Positions 1-20,457 of a stretch of 32,000 nucleotides of DNA are shown here, piece by piece. A program made the position numbers and the translations under genes. Every line of letters begins with the position of its first letter. Position 1 is the first letter of the stretch. Source of the stretch: Candidatus Methylomirabilis oxygeniifera (lineage in GTDB: Bacteria; Methylomirabilota; Methylomirabilia; Methylomirabilales; Methylomirabilaceae); the NCBI GenBank assembly GCA_000091165.1, contig FP565575.1, positions 270,001 through 302,000 on the forward strand. The letters are read 5' to 3'. The notes under the pieces were generated by a model. It was not told the origin of the DNA. It was given only the letters and a program-made list of their open reading frames with translations, and made no database searches.

Positions 1-759
1 GAGCGGATCGCGCAGTTCGACGCCGCGTTCGAGCCGCGGACCTATGAGGTTCCGCTTGCAGAGGCGATCCTGCGCCAGGCGCGACAGGTCATCCAGAATG
101 CCGGTTCTCTCCTGCTCCCGGATGGTTCAGGTCGTGATCGGGGTGCCCTGGTCAGGAACGGACAGCAGAGCTTTGAAGAGAACCACGGCCAGTACGATCG
201 GACGGAGGAGGTCTTTGCGCTGTGTGGGGCTGCGGTCCTCCTGCGGCGGACGATGCTGGACGACGTCGGGCTGCTTGATGACGAGTTCTTCATGTACTAT
301 GAGGACACCGATCTGGCATGGCGAGCCCGGCTCAGGGGGTGGAAGATTATGTATGCCCCGGGTGCGGTGGTGCGCCACGTCCATTGTGGGTCCAGCATCG
401 AATGGTCGCCCCTCTTTACCTTCCACGTGCTCCGCAATCGACTGGCCATGCTGCTGAAAGACGCCCCTGCCGGGATGGCGGCGAGGGAATGGAGACAATT
501 TCTGCTTTCCCTTCTGATACAGGGAATGAAGCTCTCCGCGCATTGCGCTCGGGGCGGCGGTCGCCGGGTGACCCCCCTGTGGCAGGACGTCGGCGTGAGA
601 GCCCGGGTCGCGCGATCGCTTATGATGTCCCTGCCAGGCCTCTACCGGAAACGCAGGACGATTCGTGGGGCGGCGCGGGTCGGGGACGAGGCGATCATGC
701 GATGGATATGCGATCCGGACAGGACCGTATATCCATCGAGAAGTAAAAAAATCACTTGA
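1..759 (+). CDS. glycosyltransferase family 2, C-terminal portion (5' end outside window)
   Basis: Frame 1 is open from base 1 to TGA 757-759; track ORF 253..759 is the same frame. The translation ...TEEVFALCGAAVLLRRTMLDDVGLLDDEFFMYYEDTDLAWRARLRGWKIMYAPGAVVRHVH... is the characteristic C-terminal half of GT2 (rhamnosyl/galactosyl-transferase-like) enzymes. Confidence 0.8.
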   Translation, partial: ERIAQFDAAFEPRTYEVPLAEAILRQARQVIQNAGSLLLPDGSGRDRGALVRNGQQSFEENHGQYDRTEEVFALCGAAVLLRRTMLDDVGLLDDEFFMYYEDTDLAWRARLRGWKIMYAPGAVVRHVHCGSSIEWSPLFTFHVLRNRLAMLLKDAPAGMAAREWRQFLLSLLIQGMKLSAHCARGGGRRVTPLWQDVGVRARVARSLMMSLPGLYRKRRTIRGAARVGDEAIMRWICDPDRTVYPSRSKKIT

Positions 760-784
760 CAGGTGTGAAATGCCATGATAGGAA
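756..784 (+). promoter_or_regulatory. candidate sigma70-type promoter (TTGACA-17-TAGGAA)
   Basis: Perfect -35 TTGACA at 756-761, a 17-nt spacer, and a weak -10 TAGGAA at 779-784. It lies in the gap upstream of the 892 gene. Confidence 0.25.
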
Positions 785-891
785 AACGCTACTAAGAAAG
801 TGGCGTGCAGGCTGCTGTAGGGCACTGAGACGGTATGTGCATTGGCGATGCTGCATGAGAGGCTATGGCTGCCGGGGAGAGGAGGACGAGT

Positions 892-1791
892 ATGATCCGT
901 TATAAGGGCGCGAAACGGTGGTTCCTACAAGGGTGCCTTACAGCGTCTTTGCTCCTCACGGTCATGGTGCGACCGGGTACGGCGGTGATGCAGTCGGATA
1001 TCCACATCTCGGACAATGGAACCGTGTATTGGGCGCAGCGCAACGACGGTTCTTCCGGGAAGGTGCGGGTGACCACCGTCGGTCTTGGGGCCAGCACCGG
1101 CGCGATCAATACGAGCGCAGCGCTGGCGCAGGATGGGACGCTGACCGCCAGCGGAACGGTGAATCCGTTGTTTGCGCTTGGCAATGTGCGGCGGACCGGA
1201 ATCTTTGCGTGCACCATTCCGGGAACGTTCGATCCGTCCGCTAATTCAGGGAATGGATCGTGGAATGTGGGTGGATCTGTGATCAACGGCTTTAGTGATG
1301 TGCCAAACCTGACCGATCTCTCCAACAACTTGGGTGGGGTTCCATCCGCTCAAACCGGAGTGAATCAGTTCGGATTCAACACTGCCACCCCAACGACCTC
1401 TATCGCAAAGGGTGCCCCAACCCCTTCTGACGGGTTTACGCTGAACACCGGTGAATGCGTGATCTACGTCCTCAATAGTGCATCTTTGCTCACCCCGGGG
1501 ACCACGCTGACCGGTGCAGGCGCGTCTGCCGGATTCATGGATAACTTCATTACCGGGACCGTGCAGTTGACGACCGGGAAGACGGATACTGTGGCGAAGT
1601 TCCTTCCCACCACCACCACGACGACGACTACGACGACGACGACTACGACGACGACCACCACGACCACCACGACGACGACAATCCCCCCGCCGACGATTCC
1701 AACGACTGGAGAGTGGGGGATGATGATTTTCGGGGCGGCGCTGCTCGGATTTATGGCCTGGATGACCCAAGCCAGGCGGTCGATTAAGTAG
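892..1791 (+). CDS. secreted protein with 24xThr linker and IPTLxxWG / IPTL-CTERM-type C-terminal sorting signal
   Basis: ATG 892 follows a strong SD, GGAGAGGAGGA (876-886); the track ORF starts at in-frame ATG 865. The N-terminus has a signal-like segment, KRWFLQGCLTASLLLTVMV. The C-terminus IPTTGEWGMMIFGAALLGFMAWMTQARRSIK is a motif, a hydrophobic helix and a basic tail. A strong terminator follows. Confidence 0.85.
   Translation: MIRYKGAKRWFLQGCLTASLLLTVMVRPGTAVMQSDIHISDNGTVYWAQRNDGSSGKVRVTTVGLGASTGAINTSAALAQDGTLTASGTVNPLFALGNVRRTGIFACTIPGTFDPSANSGNGSWNVGGSVINGFSDVPNLTDLSNNLGGVPSAQTGVNQFGFNTATPTTSIAKGAPTPSDGFTLNTGECVIYVLNSASLLTPGTTLTGAGASAGFMDNFITGTVQLTTGKTDTVAKFLPTTTTTTTTTTTTTTTTTTTTTTTTIPPPTIPTTGEWGMMIFGAALLGFMAWMTQARRSIK
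1609..1680 (+). repeat. imperfect ACS trinucleotide run encoding 24 consecutive Thr
   Basis: There are 24 Thr codons (acc/acg/act/aca mix) from 1609 to 1680, directly followed by IPPPTIPTTGEWG. Confidence 0.95.
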
Positions 1792-1820: not shown

Positions 1821-1853
1821 AAAAAGCGGGGCGATACGCCCCGCTTTTTCTTT
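1821..1853 (+). terminator. Rho-independent terminator (A-tract/T-tract flanked, possibly bidirectional)
   Basis: aaaaaGCGGGGCG-ata-CGCCCCGCtttttcttt: an 8-bp GC stem (1826-1833 / 1837-1844), a 3-nt loop, then a T-run. Confidence 0.85.
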
Positions 1854-1890: not shown

Positions 1891-4023
1891 ATGGTAGCGT
1901 CAACCGATGAACCGGAGATGGACACACGCCGTGGACGGATCGAGGTTATCAGTACCGCTGTTGTCCTCGCCCTGATCTACGGAGTACTCCTTTGGCAGTT
2001 CCCGCCCTCGCTTCTCCTGCTGCCGACGATCACAGCCGGCGGCGACACACTCTTTCACTATGTGACGGCTGCCTACCTCAGGGATCATCTGTTGGCGCAT
2101 GGCCGGATTGTGGGCTGGATGCCCGGTAATCTGGCCGGTTTTCCGCTGTTCCTCTTTTACTTTCCGCTGGCCTTCCTCGCCGTTTGCGGGCTGAGCCTTA
2201 TCGCTCCATTCCCGGTTGCGTTTAAACTGGGGACCGTTGCCGGGACCTTCGCGCTTCCGTTGGCTTCGTACGTGGCCCTCCGCTGGATCGGTCTGGCTTA
2301 CCCGACGCCTGCTATCGGAGCGCTATTCACGCTCTGTTTCCTCTTCATCGAGAGCAACACCATGTGGGGCGGCAATATCCCCAGCACACTGGCGGGAGAG
2401 TTCGCTTACAGCTTCTCCCTTCCCCTGCTGGTCCTCTTCCTCGGCGCCCTGTACCGGGGCGTGGAGAAGCGGCGGCACGCATGGTTGGGCGCGGGACTGC
2501 TCGCGCTGGTGGGTTTCAGCCACGGTTACACCCTGGTCATGGCGGCGGGGGCGGGGCTGTTCTTCCTCGTGTTCAATCGCGATATGTGGGCGACGCTCTG
2601 GTACCTCTTGCGGGTCTATGGGATCGGGGGGCTGCTGCTGGGTTTCTGGATCCTGCCGCTGGTCATGTCTTTGCCCTACACCTCCGGATGGCCCATCAGT
2701 TGGCAATTTACCTCGTTGCTTGAGCCGCTCCCGATCATCCTTTGGCCGATCGTCGCCGCCGCGATTGTCACGATCGCCGCCGCGTTCCGGCGACCGAAGC
2801 GTCCCGCGTCGAACCAGGGCCAGGAATGGATGAGCAAGGTCCATTACCTGAGCTTTCCGGTCGCGCTTGGGATCCTGCTGTTTTCGTTGGCCGCCCGCCT
2901 CAATCTGGTAGACATCCGATTCCTTTCGATCGCCCAGTTCTTCATCACGCTGGTCGCGGCCGCCGGATTCGGAAAAGCCTGGCCGCGTCTCGCGCCCCGT
3001 CTCCGGGCGATCGCCCTGGTAGTCCTCGCCCTCATCACTATCCTGTGGGCGCTCTCTCAGCAATCCTACAGCCGTGACTGGATTGTCTCAAACTATCGCG
3101 GGATGGAGTCGGCTCCGCTGTGGAAGCAATACCGGGTTCTGAACGAGGTGCTGAAGGGAGGGCCCCAGGATCCGCGGATCATGTATGAGCATTCCGGGAA
3201 GCACGAAGGCGCCGGTACCGTCCGCGCCTTCGAGGCCCTCCCGCTGTTTTCCGGCCGGTCCACGCTCGAAGGGGCGTACATGCAGTCCTCGCTGAGCGCG
3301 CCGTTCATCTTTGATCTCCAGTCAGAGCTGACGCCGACGCCATCGTGCCCCTTTCCGCAGTATCGGTGCAGCCGTTTCGATCCCGATCGGGCTGTTCGCC
3401 ATCTGGTCCTCTTCAACGTGAAGGGGTTCATCGCCGTCTCGTCGGAGGTCAAGGCGGCCCTGGATGCCCATCCGGCCTTCCGGCGGGCATTGAATGTTGA
3501 GCCGTACGCGATCTATGAGGTTCTTCCAGGTAATGGGCGGTATGTCGTCCCGCTCTCGTTCCAGCCGACCGTCTCCGGTGCGAAGGACTGGAAACGTCTG
3601 GCCTATGACTGGTTCCAGCGACCGGAATGGGCGGAAGTTCCACTGATTTTCCCACAAGGCGATGAGCCGCCACCCACGGATGCGGTTGCCTTCCATGGGC
3701 TGGAGCAGGGACCGGTCAAAGTCCCGTTGGCCGATGCCTGCCATGTTGAGGAGACGGTCCTTGAGCAGGAGATTCGCTTCCAGACCGATTGCCCGGGCCG
3801 GCCGCATCTGGTCAAGGTGTCCTATCATCCCAAGTGGAGGGCGGAGGGCGCCGATCGGATTTACCTGACGTCGCCGGCCTTTATGGTGGTCTATCCTGCG
3901 GACAAGCAGGTCAGGCTGGCGTTCGGCGACCGTTGGCCCGATACGCTTGGTTGGATTGCGACGGCGTTGGGTCTGCTGTGGCTGCTCGCAGAGGCAAGGA
4001 CGGCAGCCCCGCGACGCCGCTGA
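1891..4023 (+). CDS. large polytopic membrane protein, YfhO-like / GT-C-fold glycosyltransferase-like
   Basis: About 12 hydrophobic segments over some 420 aa are followed by a soluble domain of about 290 aa and a terminal TM. The C-terminal signature ...LVKVSYHPKWRAEGADRIYLTSPAFMVVYPADKQVRLAFG...LGWIATALGLLWLL matches the YfhO-type end. I prefer ATG 1891, because the track TTG 1852 lies inside the upstream terminator. Confidence 0.6.
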   Translation: MVASTDEPEMDTRRGRIEVISTAVVLALIYGVLLWQFPPSLLLLPTITAGGDTLFHYVTAAYLRDHLLAHGRIVGWMPGNLAGFPLFLFYFPLAFLAVCGLSLIAPFPVAFKLGTVAGTFALPLASYVALRWIGLAYPTPAIGALFTLCFLFIESNTMWGGNIPSTLAGEFAYSFSLPLLVLFLGALYRGVEKRRHAWLGAGLLALVGFSHGYTLVMAAGAGLFFLVFNRDMWATLWYLLRVYGIGGLLLGFWILPLVMSLPYTSGWPISWQFTSLLEPLPIILWPIVAAAIVTIAAAFRRPKRPASNQGQEWMSKVHYLSFPVALGILLFSLAARLNLVDIRFLSIAQFFITLVAAAGFGKAWPRLAPRLRAIALVVLALITILWALSQQSYSRDWIVSNYRGMESAPLWKQYRVLNEVLKGGPQDPRIMYEHSGKHEGAGTVRAFEALPLFSGRSTLEGAYMQSSLSAPFIFDLQSELTPTPSCPFPQYRCSRFDPDRAVRHLVLFNVKGFIAVSSEVKAALDAHPAFRRALNVEPYAIYEVLPGNGRYVVPLSFQPTVSGAKDWKRLAYDWFQRPEWAEVPLIFPQGDEPPPTDAVAFHGLEQGPVKVPLADACHVEETVLEQEIRFQTDCPGRPHLVKVSYHPKWRAEGADRIYLTSPAFMVVYPADKQVRLAFGDRWPDTLGWIATALGLLWLLAEARTAAPRRR

Positions 4024-4131
4024 ATCCAGTCAGGGGTTAGCCGGACATGTGGTCCCCCCCTTCGCTAAATAGGGAGACGAAAGCGGCACATGCGTGTCGT
4101 CCCCCTGGCTTGCTCAAGGGGGGAGGGGAGA

Positions 4132-4166
4132 GAAAACCCCCTTGTATCCCCCTTTACGAAAGGGGG
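4132..4166 (+). repeat. G/C-run palindromic repeat family, copy 1 (+ orientation)
   Basis: GAAAACCCCC-ttgtat-CCCCCTTT-acg-AAAGGGGG: an 8-bp stem with a 3-nt loop. The same architecture occurs at 9842-9874, 9932-9965 and 31032-31081, and inverted at 4282-4317. Confidence 0.85.
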
Positions 4167-4263
4167 AGGAGAAGAGGTGGCCTTTGCCAAAGTGGGAGAA
4201 GGTGTGGAGGTAGCTTTTGCCAAAGAGGGAGAAGGTGTGGAGGTAGCTTTTGCCAAAGAGGGA
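4165..4263 (+). repeat. 33-bp tandem repeat, about 3 copies
   Basis: 4198-4230 and 4231-4263 are identical (gaaggtgtggaggtagcttttgccaaagaggga). 4165-4197 is a diverged copy, about 25/33 by eye. Each unit carries a degenerate CTTTTGCCAAAGAG palindrome. Confidence 0.9.
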
Positions 4264-4281
4264 GGAGATCCAGCGTATGGT

Positions 4282-4317
4282 CCCCCCCTTTGGAAAAGGG
4301 GGGCTAGGGGGGTTTTC
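4282..4317 (-). repeat. G/C-run palindromic repeat family, copy 2 (inverted orientation)
   Basis: The reverse complement reads GAAAACCCCCC-tag-CCCCCCTTTT-cc-AAAGGGGGGG. With copy 1 it forms an inverted pair flanking the 33-bp tandem array. Confidence 0.8.
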
Positions 4318-4427
4318 CCTTCGGCAACGCAGGAGAAAGAGTGTGCATATCTGTCGCAGACAGGTTCAGCCGCGCTAATTCCGGAAGAACCACGTCATCT
4401 CGTCTCTTTCCTATTCCCCTATTTCTC

Positions 4428-4455
4428 TTGACACCGGAAGATGGACTGTGATATT
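4428..4455 (+). promoter_or_regulatory. candidate sigma70 promoter with extended -10 (TTGACA-16-TGtGATATT)
   Basis: -35 TTGACA at 4428-4433, a 16-nt spacer, TG at 4447-4448, and -10 GATATT at 4450-4455. This implies a leader of about 190 nt before ATG 4646. Confidence 0.4.
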
Positions 4456-4645
4456 GACTGTTGAATTGTAGATTGTCGATTCGCGTTCTGCCGCACATTG
4501 GCAGCGTCGCGGTTACGGTGAAGATGTTCTCATGATCAGGATCTTTATCTTTGGCTGACAGATTGTAGACGCAGCGTCACGGCCCCCGGTTGTGGCCGCC
4601 CTCAGGAAGGGGCTGCCGACCCGTGGGCAGAAGGGAGGGGCTTGT

Positions 4646-5683
4646 ATGCGCGCACGATACCGGGGCATGGTCCTCGCCGGCCTACTCGCGACGGCCGTTC
4701 TGATCCTGCCCACACCCGGCCTGGCAGCCGATACCTGCAGTCTCTCCGGCGTGTATCCCTTCAGCACCTTCGCCGATCCCGGGAGCGCGACCCAGGCCCT
4801 CGGGACGATGACCTTTACCACGGGCAGCTCGTGCAGCGTTCCGGGCACAGTGGCGATCGTGGGGTCCTACAAATCGGTCGGCGGGGTGGAGACCCTCTTC
4901 AGCGTCAGCGGCACGTACTCGGTGGACAGCACCGGACGCATGACGACGACGATTGCGGGGGATATCAACATCTGGGGGCAAGTCGCCCTGCAGGGGAGCC
5001 CCCCGGCCCGCAGCTTCCCATTCGTAGGCGCCTTCACCGGTAACCTGATCCTAGCCGGGGTGGCGGTAAGAGAGAACCTGGAACTCGCGACCGGACCGGC
5101 AGGCGCGGCAGGCGCGACAGGACCGGCAGGCGCAACGGGCGCTGCGGGAACGGCAGGCGCGGCGGGGGCGAGAGGCGCGACCGGACCGACAGGACCGGGA
5201 GGAGGCGCGACCGGCCCGACAGGACCGGCAGGCGCAACGGGCGCTGCGGGAACGGCAGGTGCGGCAGGCGCGACCGGGCCGACCGGCGCGACCGGCGCGG
5301 CAGGGCCGGTCAGGTCGAGCGTCCTGACCGGCGGGAACGCTGGGCTTGCCAATTTTCTTGCTCTGTCGTATATGGGTCCGAGAAATGGGACAGATAGTGC
5401 GACACGTGCGAACGTCGAGGTTCCTATGCCTCTGGGCTCGGCAAGCGGCTTCAGTGTGAATCTAAAAACTCCCCCTGGTGCCGGGACGTCGCGTAAGTTC
5501 ACCGTTTTGAGGAGTGCGACTCCTACACTCACCTGTACGATCGCTGGTACCGGCACGACATGTTCGGCCGCAGGGTCTCAGGCGTTCAGCTCTGATGATA
5601 TGCTGGCAGTAGAGCACTCAGCCTCCACCAGTGCTCCTGCCCCGTCACCAGGATCCTGGTCCCTGCTGTATGCGGTGCCATAA
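4646..5683 (+). CDS. secreted collagen-like (Gly-X-Y) repeat protein, paralog 1
   Basis: ATG 4646 follows GGGAGGGG, and the paralog shares the same MRARYRGM start. The signal peptide is [28 protein letters not shown]. After an N-terminal domain of about 120 aa comes a 73-aa Gly-X-Y tract (5093-5311), then a C-terminal domain of about 120 aa. A terminator follows. Confidence 0.9.
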
Positions 5684-5831: not shown

Positions 5832-6866
5832 ATGCGCGCACGATACCGAGGCATGGGCCTTGCCGGTCTGCTCACCGCGGCCGTTCTGATCCTGCCCACA
5901 CCCGGCCGGGCAGCCGATACCTGCAGTCTCTCCGGCGTGTATCCCTTCAGCACCTTCGCCGATCCCGGGAGCGCGACCCAGGCCCTCGGGACGATGACCT
6001 TTACCACGGGCAGCTCGTGCAGCGTTCCGGGCACAGTGGCGATCGTGGGGTCCTACAAATCGGTCGGCGGGGTGGAGACCCTCTTCAGCGTCAGCGGCAC
6101 GTACTCGGTGGACAGCACCGGACGCATGACGACGACGATTGCAGGAGATATCAACATTTGGGGGCAAGTCGCCCTGCAGGGGAGCCCGGCCCGTCTCCTG
6201 CCATTCGTTGGGGCCTTCACCGGTGACCTGATCCTGGCCGGGGTGGCGGTGAGCGAGAATCTGAACCTCGCTGCCGGACCGACCGGTCCGACCGGACCGA
6301 CCGGACCCGCCGGCGCGACCGGACCCGCCGGCGCGGCAGGCGCGACCGGGGCGACCGGCGCGACCGGGGCATCAGGAGGCGCGACAGGTCCGACCGGACC
6401 GGCAGGCTCGGCAGGCGCGACCGGCGCGACAGGCGCGGCGGGTCCGACCGGAGCGACCGGCGCGACAGGTGCGGCAGGGCCGAGCGTGGCGAGTGTCCTG
6501 ACCGGCGGATCGGCTGGAGAGGATCTTGCCATTCCTGGTGCTAAGTCATATATGGGTCCGGGAAACGGGCGAGATAATGCGACACTGACTAATGTTGAGG
6601 TCCCTATGCCTGCGGGCACTGCAAGCGCCTTACGTGTCAAGCTGAAAACTGCCCCTGGGGCCGGGAATTCGCGTAAGTTCACCGTCTTGCGTAGTGGGAA
6701 TACCAGTGCGCTCACCTGTACGATCGCTGATACTGGAACTGACTGTTCGATTCTCGCAGGGTCTCAGGCCTTTACTAGTTTGGAGAGGCTGGCGGTAGAG
6801 CACTCAGCCTTTGGGGCCGCCCTGTCACCAGGATCATGGTCTCTGCTGTATACGGTGACGCCGTAG
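5832..6866 (+). CDS. secreted collagen-like (Gly-X-Y) repeat protein, paralog 2
   Basis: ATG 5832 follows AAGGAGGA. The architecture matches paralog 1. The Gly-X-Y tract is 70 aa (6276-6485). A terminator follows. Confidence 0.9.
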
Positions 6867-6890
6867 CTATAACCATCTCTACACACACAA

Positions 6891-6922
6891 CCCCCCTGGT
6901 CGCCTGACCAGGGGGGTTTTTT
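6891..6922 (+). terminator. Rho-independent terminator
   Basis: CCCCCCTGGTC-gcct-GACCAGGGGGG (a perfect 11-bp stem) followed by tttttt. Confidence 0.9.
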
Positions 6923-9059: not shown

Positions 9060-9815
9060 ATGACGGACGGTAACAAGCTTCCATCCTGGAGTCAGATTCT
9101 GCTCGCGGGTGTCCTGGTTGCCCTGGTCGGAGGGGCCTTCTGGCTGAAGAGCAGGCCGACGATGCCGATCGGCGCGACCGCAGGCCTTGAATCGGTCTCA
9201 TCCATTCTTGAGCAGGGCATTCAGGCCCACAATGCCCGGCAGTACGAGCAGGCAGTGGAGTGGTACCATCGCGTGCTGGCGCAGGACCCCGGACACCCTG
9301 TCGCCCATTACAACCTGGGACAGATCTATACCGTCCAGGGACAGCCGGCCAAGGCCCAGTGGGAATACGAGGCGGTGCTGAGGGCCGATCCGCGCCATCT
9401 GGATGCATGGATCAATCTCGGGGTTGCGCTCTATCGGCAGCGCAAGTTTCAAGAGGCGGCGGAGGCATCCCGCCAAGCCCTGACACTCTCACCCCGTCAC
9501 CCGATGGCGCTCTTCAACTTGGGGGTGACGCTACTCGAAATGGACCGGCCGGATCAGGCGATTACGTGGCTGACAGCCGCATTGCAGGAAGACCAGAAGC
9601 GCGCCGATACCCACTACTATCTGGGACACGCCTACCTGAAGCAGCAACGTGTCGCCGAGGCCAGGCGATCACTGGAGAAGGCGATAGCGCTGAATCCGGA
9701 TCTGCAGATGGCCCATCTCACCCTCGCCAAGCTGGCTCGCCAACAGGGCGACTCAAAGGGCGTCCAGGAGGCGCTGAAAGGCGTGACGGGCCTCCTCCCC
9801 GGTCAGAAGCGGTAG
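9060..9815 (+). CDS. membrane-anchored TPR repeat protein
   Basis: N-terminal TM segment WSQILLAGVLVALVGGAFWL, then repeated TPR units (YEQAVEWYHRVLAQDPGHPVAHYNLGQIY..., AKAQWEYEAVLRADPRHLDAWINLGVALY...). Confidence 0.85.
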   Translation: MTDGNKLPSWSQILLAGVLVALVGGAFWLKSRPTMPIGATAGLESVSSILEQGIQAHNARQYEQAVEWYHRVLAQDPGHPVAHYNLGQIYTVQGQPAKAQWEYEAVLRADPRHLDAWINLGVALYRQRKFQEAAEASRQALTLSPRHPMALFNLGVTLLEMDRPDQAITWLTAALQEDQKRADTHYYLGHAYLKQQRVAEARRSLEKAIALNPDLQMAHLTLAKLARQQGDSKGVQEALKGVTGLLPGQKR

Positions 9816-9841
9816 GAAATCACTGCTGTCAAAACCCTGTC

Positions 9842-9926: not shown

Positions 9927-9931
9927 GATCT

Positions 9932-11019: not shown

Positions 11020-11024
11020 GCGCG

Positions 11025-13625: not shown

Positions 13626-14576
13626 ATGAGATCGACCGTCCGAACTGTTCTGATCTGTTTGGTGGTGAGCCTTGGCGTCATCGTGAGCGCCGAGAAGAGC
13701 TGGGCCGGATTTGTGTCCGGGGGGTCCCGACTCATCTATTACTACAGTCAGCGTTCCCTCGTGAACCCGGGGGCCGGGAGCGGCACGGGTGCTACGATCC
13801 TGGCCGTGAAGAACAATTCGAGCGATGCAACCAAGGTGCAGATGAAGATCTTCAACGGCTCGACCTGCGCCGGCTTTGGTCCGGTGACCTTCGATCTGCC
13901 CGGAAATCAGAGCCTTCGGATCAATGTCTCGGATCATGTCTCGGCGACCCCGTTCCCGGAAGGGTGGGTGGATCTGTATGCGGTCAATTCGGGAGGCACG
14001 CCGATCCGATGGGATTACCTGACCGGGAAGTTCACGGTACTCGATTTTGGAGGGTCCTCCACGACTGTGGCGATCTCTCAGGCGGCCGCCATGTTCTCCG
14101 ACGCGAATCGGTCGAGCGACCCTCAGGGCGGGGTCATCGCCGATAACACCGACGCGCGGACGTGGGCGCCGCACCTTCAATCCGTCGACTTTTGGGCCAC
14201 AGGGGGGCCGTTTAACATCAGCGATCGTCTGGTGGTGGTTCCGGTCTCCAGTGTGCCTGGGACGGCCCCGGTCGCCTCTACCAGCGGGATCGGTCTCTCC
14301 TTCAAGACCTTGGCGGGTGCGGAGACACTGAATACGAGCGCCACCACTTCCTGCATGCTGGCCTCGTCTCTCCCGAGCCTTCACCCGGGTTTCTCCGCCT
14401 CCTACCCGAATGGCGCCACCGTGACGGATGGGGGCACTCTCAATCTCGTCGCTGACTCCTCCGGCACCAATAAAGGCAATGCCGGGTGGCTGTTCGAGAT
14501 GGCGACGTCCCCGCTGCTTCTGGGTGTGCATCCGATACAAGCATGGGCGGAGTTGGCGGTGGACGGTCACGAGTAG
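13626..14576 (+). CDS. secreted protein of unknown function (orphan), immediately upstream of the exosortase-family gene
   Basis: ATG 13626 follows GGGGAGGAGG (13611-13620). The signal peptide is MRSTVRTVLICLVVSLGVIVSAEKSWA. Third-position GC is high in this frame. I recognise no family and see no C-terminal TM sorting tail. Confidence 0.8.
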   Translation: MRSTVRTVLICLVVSLGVIVSAEKSWAGFVSGGSRLIYYYSQRSLVNPGAGSGTGATILAVKNNSSDATKVQMKIFNGSTCAGFGPVTFDLPGNQSLRINVSDHVSATPFPEGWVDLYAVNSGGTPIRWDYLTGKFTVLDFGGSSTTVAISQAAAMFSDANRSSDPQGGVIADNTDARTWAPHLQSVDFWATGGPFNISDRLVVVPVSSVPGTAPVASTSGIGLSFKTLAGAETLNTSATTSCMLASSLPSLHPGFSASYPNGATVTDGGTLNLVADSSGTNKGNAGWLFEMATSPLLLGVHPIQAWAELAVDGHE

Positions 14577-14670: not shown

Positions 14671-15645
14671 TTGCTGTATGGGCTCGGGCTCATGTTGGTG
14701 CAATGGGGGCTCGAGCGGGGTACGTTTGTCGCCATCCTCACCGATCGCCTGGCGCAGGGCGTGCTGGTTGGTCTGCATCTGTTGGGTGTGCCGGCGAGGC
14801 TTGACGGGCTGGTGCTCCACGCCGGCGCGCTGAGTCAGCCGGTCTCGGCAAGCTGTCTGGGCCTGATCGCGGTGACCGGCTATCTCTCCGGCCTCCTCGC
14901 CGTACCGGCCGACTGGACGACGCGCTGGCGCGGGATCCGGCGCGACCTGCCGTTGCTGGTTCTTGGGAATGCGATTCGACTGTCGGCGCTCGGGATCCTC
15001 ATCACCGTATCTGTCTCAGCCTTTCAGTTTGCGCATGCGATTCTCATGGGGGCGGTTGCGCCGCTGGCCCTGATCGGGCTGTGGGGCTTCTGGTTCTACA
15101 AGGACCTGGGCGCGCTGTCGGCGTATCCCTGGCGCTTCGCCAGAGACGTGTCCCTCGCGCTGCCTCTGGCAATCGGGCTTTGGTGGCTGCTGCTTGACCC
15201 GTATGCGGTCGGGCTGTCGGTGGTGATCAAGGCGGCCCTGAGCGGCCTCGTCGGGATGCCGATTGTCGGGACCGGGGTGGTGGAGGACGGCTTCAAACGC
15301 CTCCTCGACTTTCAATTGCCGGACGGCGGTTTCCGCATCGAGATGGGCGGCCGCAGCCTGGCCCTCGCTCCGTTGATCGCCTTGATCGGCGCCTCGCCCA
15401 TCCCCTGGACGCGGCGGATTGGGCTGGGAGGTCTCGGTCTGACGATCCAGTTCGGGCTCCATGCCATGGAGGTGGTCGGACTGGTTCTCCTGGGTCGGAT
15501 CGCTCCTCCGGTGGTCCCGGCGGTCGAGGCGCTTTCGGATTACCTCGCCCTTGCCTCCGGTCCGTTCTTGTGGCTGCTGCTCGCGGCTCCGTCTTCAGCG
15601 TGGTGGGCGCTTGAGGGAGAGGGCCGTCGCGCGCGATCTGTCTGA
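14671..15645 (+). CDS. exosortase/archaeosortase-family transpeptidase-like membrane protein (candidate XrtH-type, IPTLxxWG-CTERM-specific), short N-terminus and long C-terminal polytopic extension
   Basis: The motif series matches exosortases. The pre-Cys segment is LAQGVLVGLHLLGVPARLDGLVLHAG...VSASCLGLIAV. The Arg in LGNAIRLSALGIL lies 41 residues after the Cys, the same spacing as ArtA C173/R214. This is followed by FAHAILMG. The start is uncertain: TTG 14671, ATG 14692 or TTG 14596. The track start 14428 overlaps the upstream gene and is not TM-like. Confidence 0.65.
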   Translation: MLYGLGLMLVQWGLERGTFVAILTDRLAQGVLVGLHLLGVPARLDGLVLHAGALSQPVSASCLGLIAVTGYLSGLLAVPADWTTRWRGIRRDLPLLVLGNAIRLSALGILITVSVSAFQFAHAILMGAVAPLALIGLWGFWFYKDLGALSAYPWRFARDVSLALPLAIGLWWLLLDPYAVGLSVVIKAALSGLVGMPIVGTGVVEDGFKRLLDFQLPDGGFRIEMGGRSLALAPLIALIGASPIPWTRRIGLGGLGLTIQFGLHAMEVVGLVLLGRIAPPVVPAVEALSDYLALASGPFLWLLLAAPSSAWWALEGEGRRARSV

Positions 15646-15779: not shown

Positions 15780-17141
15780 ATGGCGGCAACGGTGACACGA
15801 AAGGTTCTGCTCGTCAATCCGAGCTGGGATGGGCTGGTAAGCCGAAAGGGACGCCGGTTTAATCGCACCTGGCCTCCCCTTGATCTCCTGAATTGCGCGG
15901 CGCTGCTGGAGCAGGACGGGCTGAGCGTCGGCCTCATCGATGCCCGCGCCGTGCCCACCACGCCGGAGACGATTCGAGACGCCGCAGCGCGACACGATCT
16001 GGTCTTCGTGACCTCGTCGCCGATCGACCGGTGGCAATGCCCCAACCTCGATCTGGGCCCATTCCTGGCCGTTACACACCTGGTGGAACCCGACAAGCTG
16101 TACGTAATGGGGACGCATGGGACCGTTGCGCCTGGAGAGCTGCTTCATATGACGCAGGCGCGAGCCATCGTCCGTGGCGAGCCTGAGCCGGCGGTCCGAG
16201 CGCTTTGTGAGGGCAAAGACCCTTCTGAGGTCCCGGGTGTGACCTATCTGCAAGAGGGCACAACTATCCATAATCCGGAAGGGAACCCCGTGGATCTGAC
16301 GACCCTGCCGATGCCCGCCTTTCATCTCCTCGACCTTCGCAACTACCGGTACGAAATTCTCGGCGGAAGATTTGCCCTGCTTGAGACGACGCGCGGCTGT
16401 CACCACCGGTGCCATTTCTGCCTTCTCAAGATGTACGGCAAAGGCTACCGCAAGAAAGACCCCGAGCAGGTTGTTCATGAGGTCACACATCTGGTTCGAG
16501 AAGCGGGAGCCAAGACAGGATACTTCATCGATCTGGAGTTCACCGCGGTCCGTGACGACGTCCGGGATCTGTGTGAGCGACTGGTGTCGGCCGGGTTGCC
16601 CTTCGAGTGGGCGTGCCAGACCAGGGCCGATTATGTGGACGGGCCGCTTCTGAAGCTGATGAAGCGCGCCGGCTGTCGGCTGATCCACTTTGGCGTTGAA
16701 AGCGGCTCGCCCCGTATCCTGGCTGCAACGAATAAGCGGATTACCCTTGAGCAGATCGAACGCGGAATTGCGGAGACGAAGCAGTCAGGGATCGATCAAC
16801 TGTGTTTCTTCATGTTCGGCTTCCCGGGTGAAACCGCCGGGGATATGGAGGCGACGATCGCGTTCGCCAAGCGGCTGAGCCCCACCTATGCGTCATTTCA
16901 TGCCGTGACCCCCTACATGGGCACGAAGCTGTATGAGATGAGCGGCTCCTCGGAGCTGTTCCCTGAAGTGCTGAGCAAGGAGCACGACCCCCTCATCCTT
17001 CAGGCGATCGCCAACCGGGCCTTTCGTGAGTTTTACCTGCGGCCGGCAATGCTCTGGTCCAGGGTGCGTAGGGTGGACGTTCGTCTTTGGCGCAGGCAGG
17101 CCGCACTGTTCTGGCACTACGTGCGACCAGCCTTGACCTAG
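15780..17141 (+). CDS. B12-binding-domain radical SAM enzyme (class B)
   Basis: N-terminal Rossmann-like B12-binding region (KVLLVNPSWD...GLIDARAVP...DLVFVTSSP). CX3CX2C motif in TTRGCHHRCHFCLL. Downstream GCRLIHFGVESGS and FMFGFPGET. Confidence 0.85.
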   Translation: MAATVTRKVLLVNPSWDGLVSRKGRRFNRTWPPLDLLNCAALLEQDGLSVGLIDARAVPTTPETIRDAAARHDLVFVTSSPIDRWQCPNLDLGPFLAVTHLVEPDKLYVMGTHGTVAPGELLHMTQARAIVRGEPEPAVRALCEGKDPSEVPGVTYLQEGTTIHNPEGNPVDLTTLPMPAFHLLDLRNYRYEILGGRFALLETTRGCHHRCHFCLLKMYGKGYRKKDPEQVVHEVTHLVREAGAKTGYFIDLEFTAVRDDVRDLCERLVSAGLPFEWACQTRADYVDGPLLKLMKRAGCRLIHFGVESGSPRILAATNKRITLEQIERGIAETKQSGIDQLCFFMFGFPGETAGDMEATIAFAKRLSPTYASFHAVTPYMGTKLYEMSGSSELFPEVLSKEHDPLILQAIANRAFREFYLRPAMLWSRVRRVDVRLWRRQAALFWHYVRPALT

Positions 17142-17153: not shown

Positions 17154-17906
17154 ATGCCCCAAGACCCGCTTGGCACTCGCCGGCCCCGGGTTCCACTGAC
17201 GTTCATTATCCCGGCCTATAACGAAGAAGCCATCGTTGCCGCCAACGTCGACCGGCTCAGGTGCTACCTGAAAGACCGGGAGATTACGACGTATGAAATG
17301 CTCCTGGTCAGCAACGGCTCGACCGACCGGACCGTCGAGATCGCCAGGGCAAGCGCAGCAGGCCGCGTGGACCTCACGGTCATTGAGTTGCCGCGGCGCG
17401 GCGTGGGCCGCGCATTCAAGGCCGGGATGGCGCGCGCGCATTATGACCGGGTAGTGTGCCTCGATCTGGATCTTACCATCGATCTCGACTTCATTACGGC
17501 TGCGGCGGAAGGACTCGACACGGCGGACATCGTCATCGGTTCCAAGCAGACCGGGGGGCAGCAGCGCTCGTGGATCCGACGGCTGGCAAGCGCGGCGTTT
17601 ATCGTCTGCACGCGCCGGTTACTTCACCTCACGTTTACGGACTACTCGATCGGCGCCAAGGCGTTTCGGACCGCCTCTATACGGCCATATCTCCCCCATC
17701 TTGCCGATCAGAGCGCCTATATCCTGCAACTGATCGCCTGGGGGCATCGCGACGGCGTCGCCATTGCTGAGATTCCGGTCTGGTGCGACGATCGGAGAAA
17801 GAGTCGTTTCAACCTCATCCACGAGGGCTTCTATCGCTTCGGCAGCCTGTTTGTGCTGTGGCTTCAGGAACGGCTGTGTTGGAGGAGAGGGATCGACGGG
17901 CGATGA
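17154..17906 (+). CDS. GT2 glycosyltransferase (Dpm1-like, soluble)
   Basis: PLTFIIPAYNEEAIVAANVDRL...MLLVSNGSTDRT...RGVGRAFKAGM...CLDLDLTID. It starts 12 nt after the radical SAM stop. Its TGA overlaps the next ATG (ATGA at 17903-17906). Confidence 0.85.
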   Translation: MPQDPLGTRRPRVPLTFIIPAYNEEAIVAANVDRLRCYLKDREITTYEMLLVSNGSTDRTVEIARASAAGRVDLTVIELPRRGVGRAFKAGMARAHYDRVVCLDLDLTIDLDFITAAAEGLDTADIVIGSKQTGGQQRSWIRRLASAAFIVCTRRLLHLTFTDYSIGAKAFRTASIRPYLPHLADQSAYILQLIAWGHRDGVAIAEIPVWCDDRRKSRFNLIHEGFYRFGSLFVLWLQERLCWRRGIDGR

Positions 17907-19690
17907 AGGCTCACCGGAGGCTGCGCGTGCGGTCAATATTCTCTTCTTTTCCGACACACGTCTTGCTTGAGAAGTGCATTGTATTGGGAGCATTGTTTGC
18001 GATTGCACTCTCTTGTTCGTTTCATGTGCTGCACTATTGGTTTCTTTACGATGATCCCGCTGCTATCGTCTATTCGACGAAATCCTTGAACGATATATTT
18101 TTCTCCAATGACGCATATGTATATGGGTTTTATGCGCCGTTGTTAGCGCTTATCTTTAAGCCTGACGTTCTCTTTTTTGGGATCCAACCATTACCGTACC
18201 GTATTCACAATCTCATGATTCTCGTCTCGATAGCTTTTGTGGTCTACCAGATACTCAGGCAGTATACGGATAAATTCTCATCTGCCGTCTCTGCGATGAT
18301 TGTTCTATGTGCAACCCCCTCGTTTATCTGTGTGATTTGGATAACGCTCAGGCAATATCTGTACCCCATGCTCTTTTCTTTAATCGCGATCTATCTCTAC
18401 ATAAAATACACACCCGATCCGAAACGCGACACGTACGTGTTCCTTACCATACTGGTTCTGAGTGAATTAAGCTTTATGGGCAAAGAACAATTTATGACTT
18501 TGCCTTTTGTCCTTTTGGTCCTCTCGAAAGAGAACTTTAAGAACAGATGTCTCAAGACATATCCTTACTTTCTCTTGCTTGCCCTGCATTTTTTGCTTCG
18601 ATGGTATGTGTTGGGAAGTATGGGGGGATATTTAGGAGTTACTTACAACCCTTTGGTTTACCTGAAAACGGTCTTTACATCCATCTTCACCACCTCAGAG
18701 ATTTTATTTGGATCTCAGTGGTTGGTAGCTGTTTTGTTGTTGCCGTTCTTGTTACAGCCCGACAAGTGTATGCGATTGGTTCTCTTGTGGGTAGCGACCC
18801 TCGCTGTGTCTTTTCTTGGTATGTCTGTATATCCTTCGGCAGACACCTATCGCTATTGGTTCATTGCCGCAGTTCTGTTTTCCTTTATGATGGGGTTTGG
18901 CTCGGCTGTCATCAAAAACCCTCTGCTTAGGGGATTGTACATCCTGGCGGCAGTCATTCCGTTCTTCATTCACAGCTCGAAAATAAACGAGGAAATCACG
19001 GTCTTGTTTCAACGTGAATCGTCTATAGCCTATAAGACGTCACAATCTATGCTTGATGAGAGATACCGCAACGCAGTGATGATGTTTCCGGACAGCCCGT
19101 ATACTCATTCCGGGTATATATATTCGATGCAAAACGCATATCAGAGGGTCCTGGGAGTCGAAGCCCTCCCTACGTTCTATCCCTTTGAACTGCTGGCATT
19201 TTATCCGGACATATTACAAGATTTCGATGGCGTGTATGAAATAACACCACACGAAATTATCGATATTACACAGTCTATAAAAAAGAGATCGGATCTTTTT
19301 TTGGCAGCGTTGACCGATCAGAAACCGGAATTCGGACTCTTGCAGAGCGGAGAAGAGTTAGCGGTAAGTCTCAAGTGCAGATCCGGCAGATCGGTCACCT
19401 CGTTTATCATAGAGCAAGAGCAGTTTGCCGATAAGCAGCGCGTGAGTAGAAACGTTCTTCCTTACCTTGAGAGATTGAACTTGAGCAACACCATAAAAAA
19501 GAGCGGGAACGCCAGACTGGTGCCGATAGAGGAGATTTCATATAAGAAGAAAACGTGGTATTTCGGACGAGAACGCATTCCGGATGCTACGCTATTGATA
19601 ACAAATTTGTGCAGTGATCTATCGGGAAACAATACGCGTTTATCGGATGTTTTGTATATTCCTTTGGCGAAGAGGTTTCACATAAGCTAA
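17903..19690 (+). CDS. low-GC polytopic membrane protein, PMT/TMTC-like GT-C glycosyltransferase without TPR
   Basis: ATG 17903 is in an ATGA overlap. About 400 aa of TM segments have the loop-1 motif WFLYDDPAAIVYS followed by FYAPLLALIF...FGIQPLPYRIHNLMILV, parallel to FAFDDHLLVETN...YRPIR...FGLNPSGFRAFNILY in the 6931 gene. The C-terminal domain is soluble, about 200 aa. Hand-counted lines inside give 35-45% G+C, against 67-70% in the flanks. Confidence 0.65.
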   Translation: MKAHRRLRVRSIFSSFPTHVLLEKCIVLGALFAIALSCSFHVLHYWFLYDDPAAIVYSTKSLNDIFFSNDAYVYGFYAPLLALIFKPDVLFFGIQPLPYRIHNLMILVSIAFVVYQILRQYTDKFSSAVSAMIVLCATPSFICVIWITLRQYLYPMLFSLIAIYLYIKYTPDPKRDTYVFLTILVLSELSFMGKEQFMTLPFVLLVLSKENFKNRCLKTYPYFLLLALHFLLRWYVLGSMGGYLGVTYNPLVYLKTVFTSIFTTSEILFGSQWLVAVLLLPFLLQPDKCMRLVLLWVATLAVSFLGMSVYPSADTYRYWFIAAVLFSFMMGFGSAVIKNPLLRGLYILAAVIPFFIHSSKINEEITVLFQRESSIAYKTSQSMLDERYRNAVMMFPDSPYTHSGYIYSMQNAYQRVLGVEALPTFYPFELLAFYPDILQDFDGVYEITPHEIIDITQSIKKRSDLFLAALTDQKPEFGLLQSGEELAVSLKCRSGRSVTSFIIEQEQFADKQRVSRNVLPYLERLNLSNTIKKSGNARLVPIEEISYKKKTWYFGRERIPDATLLITNLCSDLSGNNTRLSDVLYIPLAKRFHIS

Positions 19691-20457
19691 TGGTGTCCCT
19701 CTTGAGAGGCCGTTCTACCGACATGGATGATGAGCAGATTCAACTCAGCGTGGCGATTCCCACATACAATGAGGCGAACCGGATCGGCCCGTCGCTCCAC
19801 CGGGTGTGGGACTATTTGCGGTCCCGATACGGGGCGGGCGGATTCGAGATGATTGTGGTGGATGACGGATCGCGCGACAGCACGGTCGCCGTTGTGGAAC
19901 AATTCGGGATGCGCGCGCCGGAGTTGCGACTGGTCCGCTTCTCACGGAACCGAGGCAAGGGCGCCGCCGTTCGGGCCGGCATGATAGCGGCCACAGGGAA
20001 GGCCGTGCTGTTCTCGGATGCGGACCTCTCCACACCGATCGAGGATGTGGAGGGCGCGTTAAGGCTGCTGGCGGACGGCGGAGATGTCGTGATCGGCTCG
20101 CGCGCGCTGCCTGGATCGCTGATTCTGGTGCGTCAGCATCCGTTGCGCGAGTCGATGGGACGACTGTTCAATCGCCTTATCCGGGTCCTCCTTCGGATCC
20201 CGTTTCGAGATACGCAGTGCGGATTCAAGCTGTTTCGGCGCGAGGCGGCGCATGCGATCTTCCAGCGCGCACGTATCGACGGCTTTGCCTTCGACGTCGA
20301 GGTTATCCTCATCGCGATGCAGTTGGGATATACCGTACGCGAGATGCCGGTACACTGGAGCAATGATCCGGCGAGTAGGGTGACCCTGAGTCGCCACCCC
20401 GCACAGATGATCGCCGATCTCTGGCGGATCAGGACCGGGCGCATGAGCGGCCGATGA
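19690..20457 (+). CDS. GT2 glycosyltransferase, dolichyl/polyprenyl-phosphate beta-glucosyltransferase (Alg5)-like
   Basis: LSVAIPTYNEANRIGPSL...MIVVDDGSRDST...SRNRGKGAAVRAGM...FSDADLSTPIED...VIGSR. ATG 19690 overlaps the upstream TAA (TAATG). An alternative start is ATG 19723. Confidence 0.85.
   Translation: MVSLLRGRSTDMDDEQIQLSVAIPTYNEANRIGPSLHRVWDYLRSRYGAGGFEMIVVDDGSRDSTVAVVEQFGMRAPELRLVRFSRNRGKGAAVRAGMIAATGKAVLFSDADLSTPIEDVEGALRLLADGGDVVIGSRALPGSLILVRQHPLRESMGRLFNRLIRVLLRIPFRDTQCGFKLFRREAAHAIFQRARIDGFAFDVEVILIAMQLGYTVREMPVHWSNDPASRVTLSRHPAQMIADLWRIRTGRMSGR

Follow-up and report, generated by a model that had tools for sequence, protein, structure and literature searches.

Cells of Methylomirabilis have a unique polygonal shape, which has been attributed to rigid sheets of surface layer (S-layer) (PMC8671808). 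The protein of this layer has been identified experimentally in M. lanthanidiphila as mela_00855, a protein of 316 amino acids (aa) with a signal peptide at residues 1-34 and an IPTL-CTERM tail at residues 285-312 (Gambelli et al. 2021; PMC8671808). Its place in the outermost lattice was shown by immunogold labelling for M. lanthanidiphila only, glycosyltransferase and UDP-sugar dehydrogenase genes adjoin its gene, and its sole homolog in that paper is CBE67388 of M. oxyfera (PMC8671808). The stretch analysed here, called the window throughout, comprises 32,000 nucleotides (nt) of that organism, listed as Candidatus Methylomirabilis oxygeniifera (GenBank assembly GCA_000091165.1, contig FP565575.1, positions 270,001 to 302,000), and positions are counted from its first letter. 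The region is read here as the S-layer locus of M. oxyfera, in which the stalk of the S-layer protein would be glycosylated by family 2 glycosyltransferases (GT2) and GT-C membrane glycosyltransferases, and its tail cut and anchored by an exosortase. The probability of this reading is put at about 0.6.

An original prediction, drawn from the letters of the window, had described positions 1-20457 as an island for the glycosylation and sorting of surface proteins, in an arrangement that matched no described system. Its surface-protein part has held, the protein being a mela_00855 homolog with an IPTL-CTERM signal (overlooked at the time), but heavy O-glycosylation, also proposed there, remains a prediction with some data against it, and the unity of the gene set is not supported. 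The claim of novelty also holds in part. Glycosyltransferase neighbours of the S-layer gene were noted in 2021, in a paper that did not tie the IPTL-CTERM to an exosortase (PMC8671808), and streptococcal GT2/GT-C systems are established. The exosortase link, the module of S-layer, PTPS_related and GT2 genes and a replaceable GT-C slot within it were not found in the literature searched (IPTL-CTERM, XrtH, and Methylomirabilis together with exosortase).

The closest described locus is that of mela_00855, whose type is represented among the loci gathered here by L034. The M. oxyfera protein is like mela_00855 in its signal peptide, head, hydrophilic Thr-rich tail and IPTL-CTERM, and L034 has a PTPS_related GT-C, a B12-binding radical SAM enzyme and a GT2 downstream, as in the window. 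M. oxyfera differs in an 11.7-kb insert and in a 317-aa exosortase with a partner protein, instead of the exosortase XrtH. Its lattice symmetry has also been reported to be different from that of M. lanthanidiphila. Outside the bacteria, the archaeosortase ArtA processes the S-layer glycoprotein of Haloferax volcanii, and O-glycosylation has been suggested for the Thr/Ser-rich regions that precede sorting signals (Haft preprint). The likeness lies in a Thr-rich stalk placed directly before a tripartite signal on an S-layer protein, in an enzyme of the same exosortase/archaeosortase family with its Cys/Arg/His triad, and in associated glycosylation genes. However, M. oxyfera is a diderm whose product must also cross or attach to the outer membrane, its signal is of the IPTL and not the PGF-CTERM type, and its anchoring and glycosylation are predictions.

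For the sugars, the nearest counterparts are streptococcal. GtrB with PgtC2, and the Pgf enzymes (PgfS, PgfM1, PgfE and PgfM2, acting on Cnm and WapA), glycosylate Ser/Thr-rich regions of membrane- or sortase-anchored surface proteins, which serve as the acceptor comparison here (PMC12041528, PMC5856776). What is shared is a GT2 of the polyprenyl-phosphate-sugar type combined with a GT-C enzyme that modifies extracytoplasmic Ser/Thr-rich stretches, and PgfS, PgfM1 and PgfM2 are among the top NCBIfam matches in the window. In contrast, scores fall far short of equivalog level, M. oxyfera is a diderm whose proposed target is an S-layer protein with an exosortase-type signal and not LPXTG, the island is without an epimerase, and glycosylation by its enzymes is a prediction. 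Serotype-conversion clusters of the gtr type (GtrA, GtrB and a type-specific GtrC) offer a further likeness, a GtrB-like GT2 followed by a replaceable low-GC GT-C that was probably acquired horizontally. Unlike them, the M. oxyfera locus has no GtrA flippase, and it is chromosomal and S-layer-linked, not phage-borne.

The probable S-layer gene and its sorting signal

Proteins of the window were examined by open reading frame (ORF) listing, codon-position G+C content (GC) and profile scans with Pfam and NCBIfam, and exact-sequence look-ups tied window products to reference-genome accessions CBE67393-CBE67403. The window agrees with two M. oxyfera assemblies without a mismatch in the stretches compared, and the 8 kb 5' of it were read from the locus L007. 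Related loci were gathered by exact protein look-ups, a genome scan with PTPS_related and a metagenome scan with an alignment of the tail, and all window products were compared against them (about 30 loci of the phylum NC10). The S-layer gene and the core genes that go with it are as follows.

892-1791, plus strand: putative S-layer protein, 299 aa, with signal peptide, globular head, poly-Thr, PPPT and IPTL-CTERM
1828-1847, plus strand: terminator-like hairpin within the conserved spacer of about 100 nt from the S-layer gene to the GT-C gene
1891-4023, plus strand: PTPS_related (PF10131) GT-C, 710 aa, from Pfam (E 9e-34), fold and synteny
15780-17141, plus strand: B12-binding radical SAM enzyme, HpnJ/BchE/AprD4-like
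17154-17906, plus strand: Dpm1/ArnC/GtrB-like GT2, 250 aa (GT2_250), from Pfam Glycos_transf_2 and PDB relatives
17903-19690, plus strand: low-GC GT-C, 595 aa, from its fold, overlapping the GT2 ORFs on both sides
19690-20457, plus strand: Dpm1/GtrB/PgfS-like GT2, 255 aa (GT2_255), last gene of the island (Glycos_transf_2 E 1e-30)

The product of 892-1791 contains a run of 24 Thr at residues 240-263 (nt 1609-1680); this run, like the collagen-type G-X-Y tracts of two other secreted proteins, had been seen in the original prediction and was found again. The C-terminus reads PPPT-IPTTGEWG-MMIFGAALLGFMAWM-TQARRSIK, and the sorting signal itself, at about nt 1696-1788, consists of IPTTGEWG, a transmembrane (TM) helix and ARRSIK. 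The IPTL-CTERM model TIGR04174 is passed with 29.7 bits (cut-off 20.5) at residues 278-305 of a 308-aa form of the protein, a hidden Markov model (HMM) match that lies at the extreme C-terminus and takes in motif, TM helix and basic cluster. The Pfam version of the same signal, PF18203, stays below threshold (15.7 against 20.8).

Accession order puts CBE67388 at 892-1791, and the equation of the two was inferred from this order together with homology; orthologs of the product are P0001-P0003. The S-layer protein of L034 has 316 aa and an IPTL-CTERM at exactly 285-312, as mela_00855 does, and it aligns with the window at 35% identity over residues 9-313 (tblastn, E 1e-13). Just upstream of its gene lie an antisense GT4 gene and a gene of the UDP-Glc/GDP-Man dehydrogenase family, matching the published neighbours, and the homology between window and L034 is joined by common PTPS_related, radical SAM and GT2 neighbours. 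Because accession order agrees with the homology and neighbours in L034, the prediction that 892-1791 is the gene for the M. oxyfera S-layer protein, a homolog of mela_00855, is well supported. The exact protein is missing from a large protein collection that has all of the neighbouring products, although a gene is called at this place on L007; its low-complexity Thr run may be the reason why it was filtered out.

Glycosyltransferases next to the S-layer gene

Tails of the form P[TA]xG[EN]WG were found in 31 genes, almost all of which encode a poly-Thr or (Ser-Thr)n linker of about 10-45 residues before the motif, and the heads of these proteins, which evolve fast, fall into at least two unrelated families. 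Two variants of the tail, IPTTGEWGMM and IPT[VA]GNWGM, are distinguished. Sufficient DNA on the 3' side is available for 27 of these genes, and in 25 of them a PTPS_related gene starts 77-112 nt past the stop codon; the exceptions encode further IPTL-tailed proteins and lie in different surroundings. The S-layer gene of the sister species is transcribed at a very high level, and the hairpin in the conserved spacer would be expected to attenuate read-through into the GT-C gene. The core order in NC10 is S-layer protein, PTPS_related GT-C, often the B12-binding radical SAM enzyme, a Dpm1-like GT2 and a variable GT-C; variants downstream of PTPS_related have GT2_250 alone or a GT2_255-like gene. 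The radical SAM gene stands between those of the GT-C and the GT2 in the majority of NC10 S-layer loci; homologs of its product with 73-84% identity are present in L011/L036, L014, L018, L033, L034, L039-L041 and L043, and those of GT2_255 (72-82%) in L014, L034, L040 and L043. That the radical SAM enzyme tailors a sugar is speculation.

The original prediction had counted four GT-C enzymes, and all four stand, two by predicted fold (1891-4023 and 17903-19690) and two by Pfam (6967-8889 and 11025-13241, both in the 11.7-kb insert). For the PTPS_related protein, the AlphaFold model (pLDDT 93.1) has GT-C enzymes as all of its 16 best PDB matches in Foldseek, with AftD, STT3, ArnT, PglB, AglB and Pmt4 as matches. 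For the 595-aa protein (pLDDT 88.9), the 21 best matches are likewise all GT-C (ArnT, PglB, STT3, AglB, AftA, ALG9, DPY19, Emb, Pmt1/2, ALG3). These predicted models thus upheld the GT-C fold when HMM and structure checks were run; TM-scores are modest (0.35-0.47), with no non-GT-C fold competing. Sequence-only PDB searches with the GT-C candidates returned nothing for the membrane domains and only TPR matches, for the TMTC-like protein of the insert. The PTPS_related family consensus, as read from sequence, has an acidic GGDT in the first periplasmic loop, F47, D50 and D51 (F..DD after TM1) are invariant in the 595-aa family, and a FAFDDH motif follows TM1 of the TMTC-like enzyme; acidic residues of the predicted first periplasmic loop are thus present in three of the GT-Cs. 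At E <= 1e-3 the PTPS_related family has 2,547 cluster representatives, many of them with C-terminal TPR domains or an N-terminal extension of about 280 aa. A fused GT2 was considered for these extensions and rejected: they have no Pfam match, and the only fusions are those with C-terminal TPR.

The count of four GT2 genes, three of them of Dpm1/GtrB type, was likewise sound. The three short enzymes (GT2_250, GT2_255 and GT2_322 of the insert) match Pfam Glycos_transf_2 at E 1e-21 to 1e-30, and their nearest solved relatives are dolichol-phosphate-mannose synthase (DPMS, 5mlz), GtrB (5ekp) and ArnC, and also 9hwj and 8vxh. Their top NCBIfam matches are PpgS, AglJ, ArnC, PgfS and Dol-P-hexose transferase; PgfS comes first for GT2_255, which has DPMS, GtrB and ArnC as best PDB relatives. 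With 25-83 bits against cut-offs of 325-529 for PgfS, ArnC, PpgS and AglJ, they are best described as putative lipid-phosphate sugar synthase-like enzymes outside any named equivalog.

The GT-C slot after GT2_250 is filled differently in L011, L018, L034 and M. oxyfera. It holds a PMT_2 protein in L018, a PTPS_related paralog in L034, the 595-aa protein in M. oxyfera and L014, and an unrelated 550-aa membrane protein, of unconfirmed GT-C type, in L011. The 595-aa gene has a GC of 46% against about 60% in its neighbours; its product has no Pfam match of its own, and 4 of the 31 members of its family have a PMT_2 match. Two more distant homologs (44-50%) bear Nitrospirota source names. In L043, GT2_250 adjoins GT2_255 without the 595-aa gene, which identifies that gene as an insertion. 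Given the low GC, the Nitrospirota-named homologs and the absence from L043, it was probably acquired horizontally from Nitrospirota, inserting into a slot whose GT-C is replaceable. In the reference annotation, CBE67403 (306 aa) takes in only part of 17903-19690. Upstream of the S-layer gene of L034, a Wzy_C protein (O-antigen ligase/PglL-like; L034:239-1621) and a GH123 glycoside hydrolase with CARDB (L034:4887-7097) are encoded, and a PglL-type route of en-bloc O-glycosylation could operate in the M. lanthanidiphila-type clade.

It is synteny that points to O-glycosylation of the S-layer protein, and several observations weigh against the reading as an S-layer locus with glycosylated stalk and exosortase-sorted tail; those on the sugars are given here and those on the exosortase with that enzyme. 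The S-layer role of the M. oxyfera product itself is putative, and the island has neither a flippase of GtrA or Wzx type nor nucleotide-sugar genes. In the sister species, shotgun proteomics of mela_00855 gave covered sequence without glycans, only the hydrophilic C-terminal tail being uncovered, and the authors' preliminary staining for glycans was negative (PMC8671808). In favour of the reading, mela_00855 appears on immunoblots at about 90 kDa, where 31.6 kDa were expected (PMC8671808). In Gemmatimonadota (L023-L026), GT2_250 lies a few hundred bases downstream of PTPS_related without an S-layer gene, which means that the pair is not intrinsically S-layer-specific.

The lack of glycans on the covered sequence of the sister protein and the Gemmatimonadota pairs would also fit another acceptor. 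The GT2/GT-C pairs could decorate lipopolysaccharide (LPS), O-antigen or another envelope glycan on which the S-layer docks, with the Thr stalk as a spacer, and linkage to the S-layer gene would then reflect co-adaptation of lattice and docking glycan. Parallels exist in RsaA of Caulobacter, which docks on O-antigen, and in the ArnC/ArnT and Rgt enzymes, whose substrates are lipid A and core. The solved structures closest to the GT2 enzymes include ArnC, the PMT_2 family takes in ArnT/Rgt-type glycosyltransferases of lipid A and core (the UniRef name of CBE67393, the TMTC-like protein, is 'RgtA/B/C/D-like'), LptF and LptG directly adjoin the island, and the O-antigen-ligase-like Wzy_C gene stands near the S-layer gene of L034. 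However, adjacency to LptFG is lost in L011, L014, L018 and L021, and the Ser/Thr linker is kept in almost all tail-bearing proteins despite their unrelated heads, which fits a modified stalk. TPR domains, typically protein-binding, are found on many PTPS_related members and on the TMTC-like enzyme, proven relatives of the YfhO type include protein O-glycosylation systems, and the strict adjacency of S-layer and GT-C genes favours a protein acceptor. A docking glycan as the target is the chief rival reading; it is held to be rather unlikely, and the S-layer stalk remains the preferred acceptor.

The exosortase, its partner and the accessory block

The S-layer gene and its PTPS_related neighbour are separated from the other core genes in M. 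oxyfera by an accessory block of 11.7 kb. The glycosyltransferases of this block are a TMTC-like GT-C and a GtrB-like GT2 paired with a YfhO-like GT-C; beside them it encodes two collagen-like proteins, a TPR protein, and the exosortase with its 316-aa partner. The last two genes are:

13626-14576, plus strand: 316-aa exported protein (Exp316, CBE67399), upstream partner of the exosortase, no family match
14692-15645, plus strand: exosortase-family protein, 317 aa, with an XrtX/XrtH-like N-terminal catalytic domain and a conserved membrane extension of about 180 aa

Both an exosortase and a radical SAM enzyme had been named in the original prediction; the latter proved to be of the B12-binding type, and the former belongs to the exosortase/archaeosortase family. 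Its two gene forms score 27.9-28.5 bits against 23 for the signature TIGR04178, which is also matched by 13 of 17 homologs, and C55, R96 and H115 are invariant in these 17 homologs (48-94% identity), giving an intact Cys/Arg/His triad in a protein with multiple hydrophobic segments. An IPTL-CTERM protein, a candidate substrate, is encoded 13 kb upstream in the same island. XrtH proper is present in L034 and L035 as a protein of 170 aa (87.7 bits against 86), 7-9 kb downstream of the S-layer gene (L034:18265-18777 in L034), and behind it lies a gene with weak similarity to the XrtH-associated membrane protein (NF041730); in L033, a partial copy, the start of an XrtH gene comes right after GT2_250. 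With the 317-aa enzyme in the window and XrtH in L033-L035, an exosortase-family enzyme is linked to IPTL-tailed S-layer genes in two clades, and exosortase-type sorting of the S-layer protein is well supported. IPTL-type tails also occur on other proteins in L045, L049 and L054, with no PTPS_related gene following, and NC10 genomes thus appear to hold more than one exosortase substrate.

XrtH is described in TIGRFAMs as specific for IPTL-CTERM proteins, and the evidence for this pairing in the present loci is co-location. The likeness to the XrtH/IPTL-CTERM system (TIGR04177/TIGR04174, NF041730) is that the signal passes its model, that XrtH lies in the sister-clade locus, and that the window enzyme is homologous, its catalytic domain aligning with the XrtH of L034 at an hhalign probability of 93.6%. 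On the other hand, the window enzyme falls outside XrtH (28-29 bits against a cut-off of 86) as well as outside XrtX (37 against 170), has the membrane extension of about 180 aa, and is always paired with Exp316, which lacks a sorting signal. A match of the extension to a fused XrtH-associated membrane protein was not significant.

Exp316 has no Pfam or NCBIfam match. The pair with the exosortase is kept at 50-87% identity in L014, L015 and L017, and all four copies of Exp316 end in His-Glu. Two candidates were set aside: Exp316 as a classical exosortase substrate, as its C-terminus has neither a TM helix nor a basic cluster, and a 288-aa protein of L011, which is not an Exp316 homolog. In L015 and L017 the pair stands alone amid housekeeping genes, and outside M. 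oxyfera and its close relative L014 the window-type exosortase is found only with Exp316, at a distance from any glycosyltransferase or S-layer gene. It occurs in none of 27 metagenomic S-layer loci, and the S-layer loci L011, L018, L021 and L043, each with 10 kb downstream, have no exosortase at all. Together with the sub-threshold XrtH score, these are the points against the exosortase half of the reading. The rest of the accessory block comprises:

4024-4590: intergenic left junction of the accessory insert, with three palindromes resembling repetitive extragenic palindromes (REP-like; CCCCCTTTnnnnAAAGGGGG) and a 33-nt tandem repeat
4646-5683, plus strand: collagen-like secreted protein 1, with signal peptide, N-domain, two G-X-Y runs rich in GAT/GPT, and C-domain
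5832-6866, plus strand: collagen-like secreted protein 2, tandem paralog of protein 1
6889-6918: strong terminator-like hairpin 3' of collagen-like gene 2
6967-8889 (alternative GTG start 6931), plus strand: PMT_2/PMT/TMTC-like GT-C with C-terminal TPR (CBE67393), from Pfam
9060-9815, plus strand: membrane-anchored periplasmic TPR protein, 251 aa (TPR251), from Pfam TPR and an N-terminal TM segment
10051-11019, minus strand: GtrB/DPMS-type GT2 with two C-terminal TM helices (GT2_322), putative polyprenyl-phosphate sugar synthase (Glycos_transf_2 E 1e-21)
11025-13241, minus strand: YfhO-like GT-C, 738 aa, directly upstream of GT2_322 on the minus strand

The collagen-like genes arose by tandem duplication (period about 1183-1186 nt); the N-domains of the paralogs are 93% identical, and their G-X-Y tracts and C-domains 75-82% in nucleotide sequence. 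G-X-Y triplets in runs of 13+11 and 12+11 amount to a triple-helix repeat, and Pfam Collagen scores 32.4 bits against a cut-off of 27.2 on paralog 1 and 32-33 across both. With 30-38 bits against 325-500 for SclB, Lcl and SclA, the proteins are not equivalogs of these, and they lack the LPXTG of Scl or any other C-terminal anchor. Their G-X-Thr tracts resemble BclA. The accessory GT-C and GT2 genes may serve the collagen-like proteins. The enzyme at 6967-8889, found in M. oxyfera only among the loci compared, scores 36.1 against 26.1 for PMT_2 and 34.6 against 22.7 for PMT, with many TPR matches and TMTC_DUF1736 below threshold. For GT2_322 the top NCBIfam matches are PpgS and AglJ, both sub-threshold, and the nearest PDB relative is DPMS 5mlz. 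The label 'YfhO-like', which the original prediction had given to two proteins, suits 11025-13241 (YfhO 31.1 against 28.5, in the C-terminal 60 residues only) but not 1891-4023, which belongs to PF10131 and not to YfhO proper. The 11025-13241 protein is a remote paralog of the PTPS_related protein, with weak matches to PgfM1 and PgfM2 and with 'YfhO family' and 'PTPS-related' as source names in databases.

The make-up of this block bears on whether the genes form one system. The original prediction had treated the gene set as a whole, yet co-conservation breaks down for the collagen-like, TMTC-TPR, GT2_322/YfhO and low-GC GT-C genes, which are accessory or strain-specific. The region could instead be a mosaic of an S-layer core, a module for collagen-like glycoproteins, and an exosortase with Exp316 that has another substrate, the S-layer protein being cut by an XrtH encoded elsewhere; this is compatible with docking-glycan decoration, as the two are not mutually exclusive. 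The lone Exp316-exosortase pairs, the absence of the window-type enzyme from the metagenomic S-layer loci and the presence of XrtH proper in L033-L035 all fit such a mosaic, as do the absence of the low-GC GT-C from L043, with GT2_250 beside GT2_255, and the terminator-like hairpins 3' of the S-layer gene, both collagen-like genes and the exosortase. In L043 the block of collagen, TPR and YfhO genes lies on the other side of the S-layer gene. The REP-like palindrome CCCCC(C)TTTnnnnAAAGGGGG occurs seven times (window 4055, 4147, 4283, 9855, 9889, 9946 and 31046), with 30 strand and offset matches against 0.17 expected, and clusters in two intergenic stretches, one ahead of the first collagen gene (4024-4590), at the left junction, and one behind the TPR gene (9816-10050), within the insert. 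However, XrtH was seen neither in the window nor in the loci examined from the M. oxyfera clade, and the 317-aa enzyme is both nearest to XrtX/XrtH and the only exosortase seen in that clade. The accessory modules also recur beside S-layer genes in a non-random way: YfhO-like homologs (55-59%) adjoin S-layer genes in L042-L044, where they lie upstream, and in L043 a 39% collagen-like homolog and a 58% TPR251 homolog join them. A mosaic is thus possible, and it is taken seriously here without being favoured.

Under the preferred reading, of an S-layer protein glycosylated on its stalk and sorted by its tail, Sec would export the protein, whose C-terminal helix would keep it in the inner membrane and leave the Thr stalk close to the membrane. 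GT2 enzymes would load monosaccharides on polyprenyl phosphate at the cytoplasmic face and, after flipping, the GT-Cs, above all the PTPS_related enzyme, would move the sugars onto the Ser/Thr stalk on the periplasmic side; the GXT tracts of the collagen-like proteins are possible further acceptors for the accessory enzymes. GtrB/PgtC2 and Pgf offer the precedent for Ser/Thr-rich acceptors (PMC12041528, PMC5856776). An exosortase-family cysteine protease, either the 317-aa enzyme of the island or an XrtH encoded elsewhere in the genome, would then cut at IPTTGEWG. By analogy with archaeosortase ArtA, the cleaved helix would probably be swapped for a membrane anchor, tethering the lattice to the outer membrane, and the protein would be displayed as the outer lattice. 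More tentatively, the locus may be an NC10 counterpart of the archaeal S-layer-glycoprotein pathway, in which PTPS_related and a Dpm1-like GT2 (perhaps with the B12-binding radical SAM enzyme) O-glycosylate the stalk, an exosortase swaps the IPTL helix for an anchor, and the 317-aa exosortase with Exp316 forms a new subtype that has an accessory subunit or acts on an unusual substrate.

Limits of the island and meaning for Methylomirabilis

The genes assigned by the original prediction to 1-20457 are all present, but the island begins about 6.4 kb upstream of the window and totals about 27 kb, with housekeeping genes at both ends: AdoHcyase, on the opposite strand, limits it on one side and LptFG on the other. 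Its leading genes and the genes past its end are:

Upstream, leading into the window, plus strand (from L007): four cytoplasmic enzymes, namely a GT4 with coiled coil, a GT4, a radical-SAM/SPASM-methyltransferase fusion and the GT2 that continues at 1-759
1-759, plus strand: C-terminal half of a 486-aa cytoplasmic GT2 (Glyco_tranf_2_3; MftF/rhamnosyltransferase-like; Pfam, NCBIfam)
Past the island: LptG and LptF (minus strand), then a CPBP protease, a BNR protein, ComEC, XseA and IspA

These limits bear on whether the region is an ordinary exopolysaccharide or O-antigen cluster with initiation and export genes just outside the window. Cytoplasmic GT4 and GT2 enzymes do lie upstream, and classical genes occur near the loci of relatives: L014 has Bac_transf and an epimerase, L034 has Wzy_C and a UDP-sugar dehydrogenase, and L011 has a UDP-GlcNAc 2-epimerase. 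However, Pfam and NCBIfam scans of the window and the 8 kb upstream found no Wzx, Wzy, Wza, Wzc, phosphoglycosyl transferase or nucleotide-sugar gene, and the gene content of the same span includes no ABC exporter. The absence of such genes, remarked in the original prediction for 1-20457, thus extends to the whole window and its upstream flank, and initiation, flippase, polymerase and export functions of a Wzx/Wzy- or ABC-dependent cluster are all missing. The island is dominated by polyprenyl-phosphate-monosaccharide synthases and GT-C transferases, not by repeat-unit assembly, its ends are AdoHcyase and LptFG, and its conserved anchor gene encodes a protein. An ordinary polysaccharide cluster is thus largely refuted and highly improbable. 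The four terminator-like hairpins noted above, which come from a consensus scan, mean that the island is not one operon, and Rfam and tRNA scans of the window gave no match.

Beyond the island, the CPBP (Rce1-like) intramembrane protease at window 23028-23993 has weak similarity to MrtJ/MrtS of the myxosortase type (31 bits against a cut-off of 75) and adjoins a BNR/sialidase-like exported protein at 24063-25817; a link between this protease and the S-layer protein is unlikely because the IPTL tail is without Cys. One REP-like copy lies within the IspA-like ORF and is read as PPLAKGGWGDL, and a perfect 7-nt tandem repeat, CCCTACA x 4.7, is found at 30327-30359, at the 3' end of the xseA-like gene.

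For the organism, the locus bears on what modifies an S-layer protein of 31 kDa and how it is fixed to the outer membrane. The tail left uncovered in the published proteomics corresponds to the poly-Thr stalk and the exosortase signal, throughout the phylum the S-layer gene goes with a GT-C/GT2 pair, and the same loci contain exosortase genes. If the reading is true, exosortase anchoring would explain the tethering of the rigid sheets, which resist sodium dodecyl sulphate, and this would be the first bacterial S-layer shown to have exosortase-type anchoring. It would also be a rare case of protein O-glycosylation through lipid-phosphate sugars and GT-C enzymes in a diderm, outside the paradigm of Actinobacteria and Firmicutes, and the PTPS_related (PF10131) family, which is uncharacterised despite its size of more than 2,500 cluster representatives, would gain a function.

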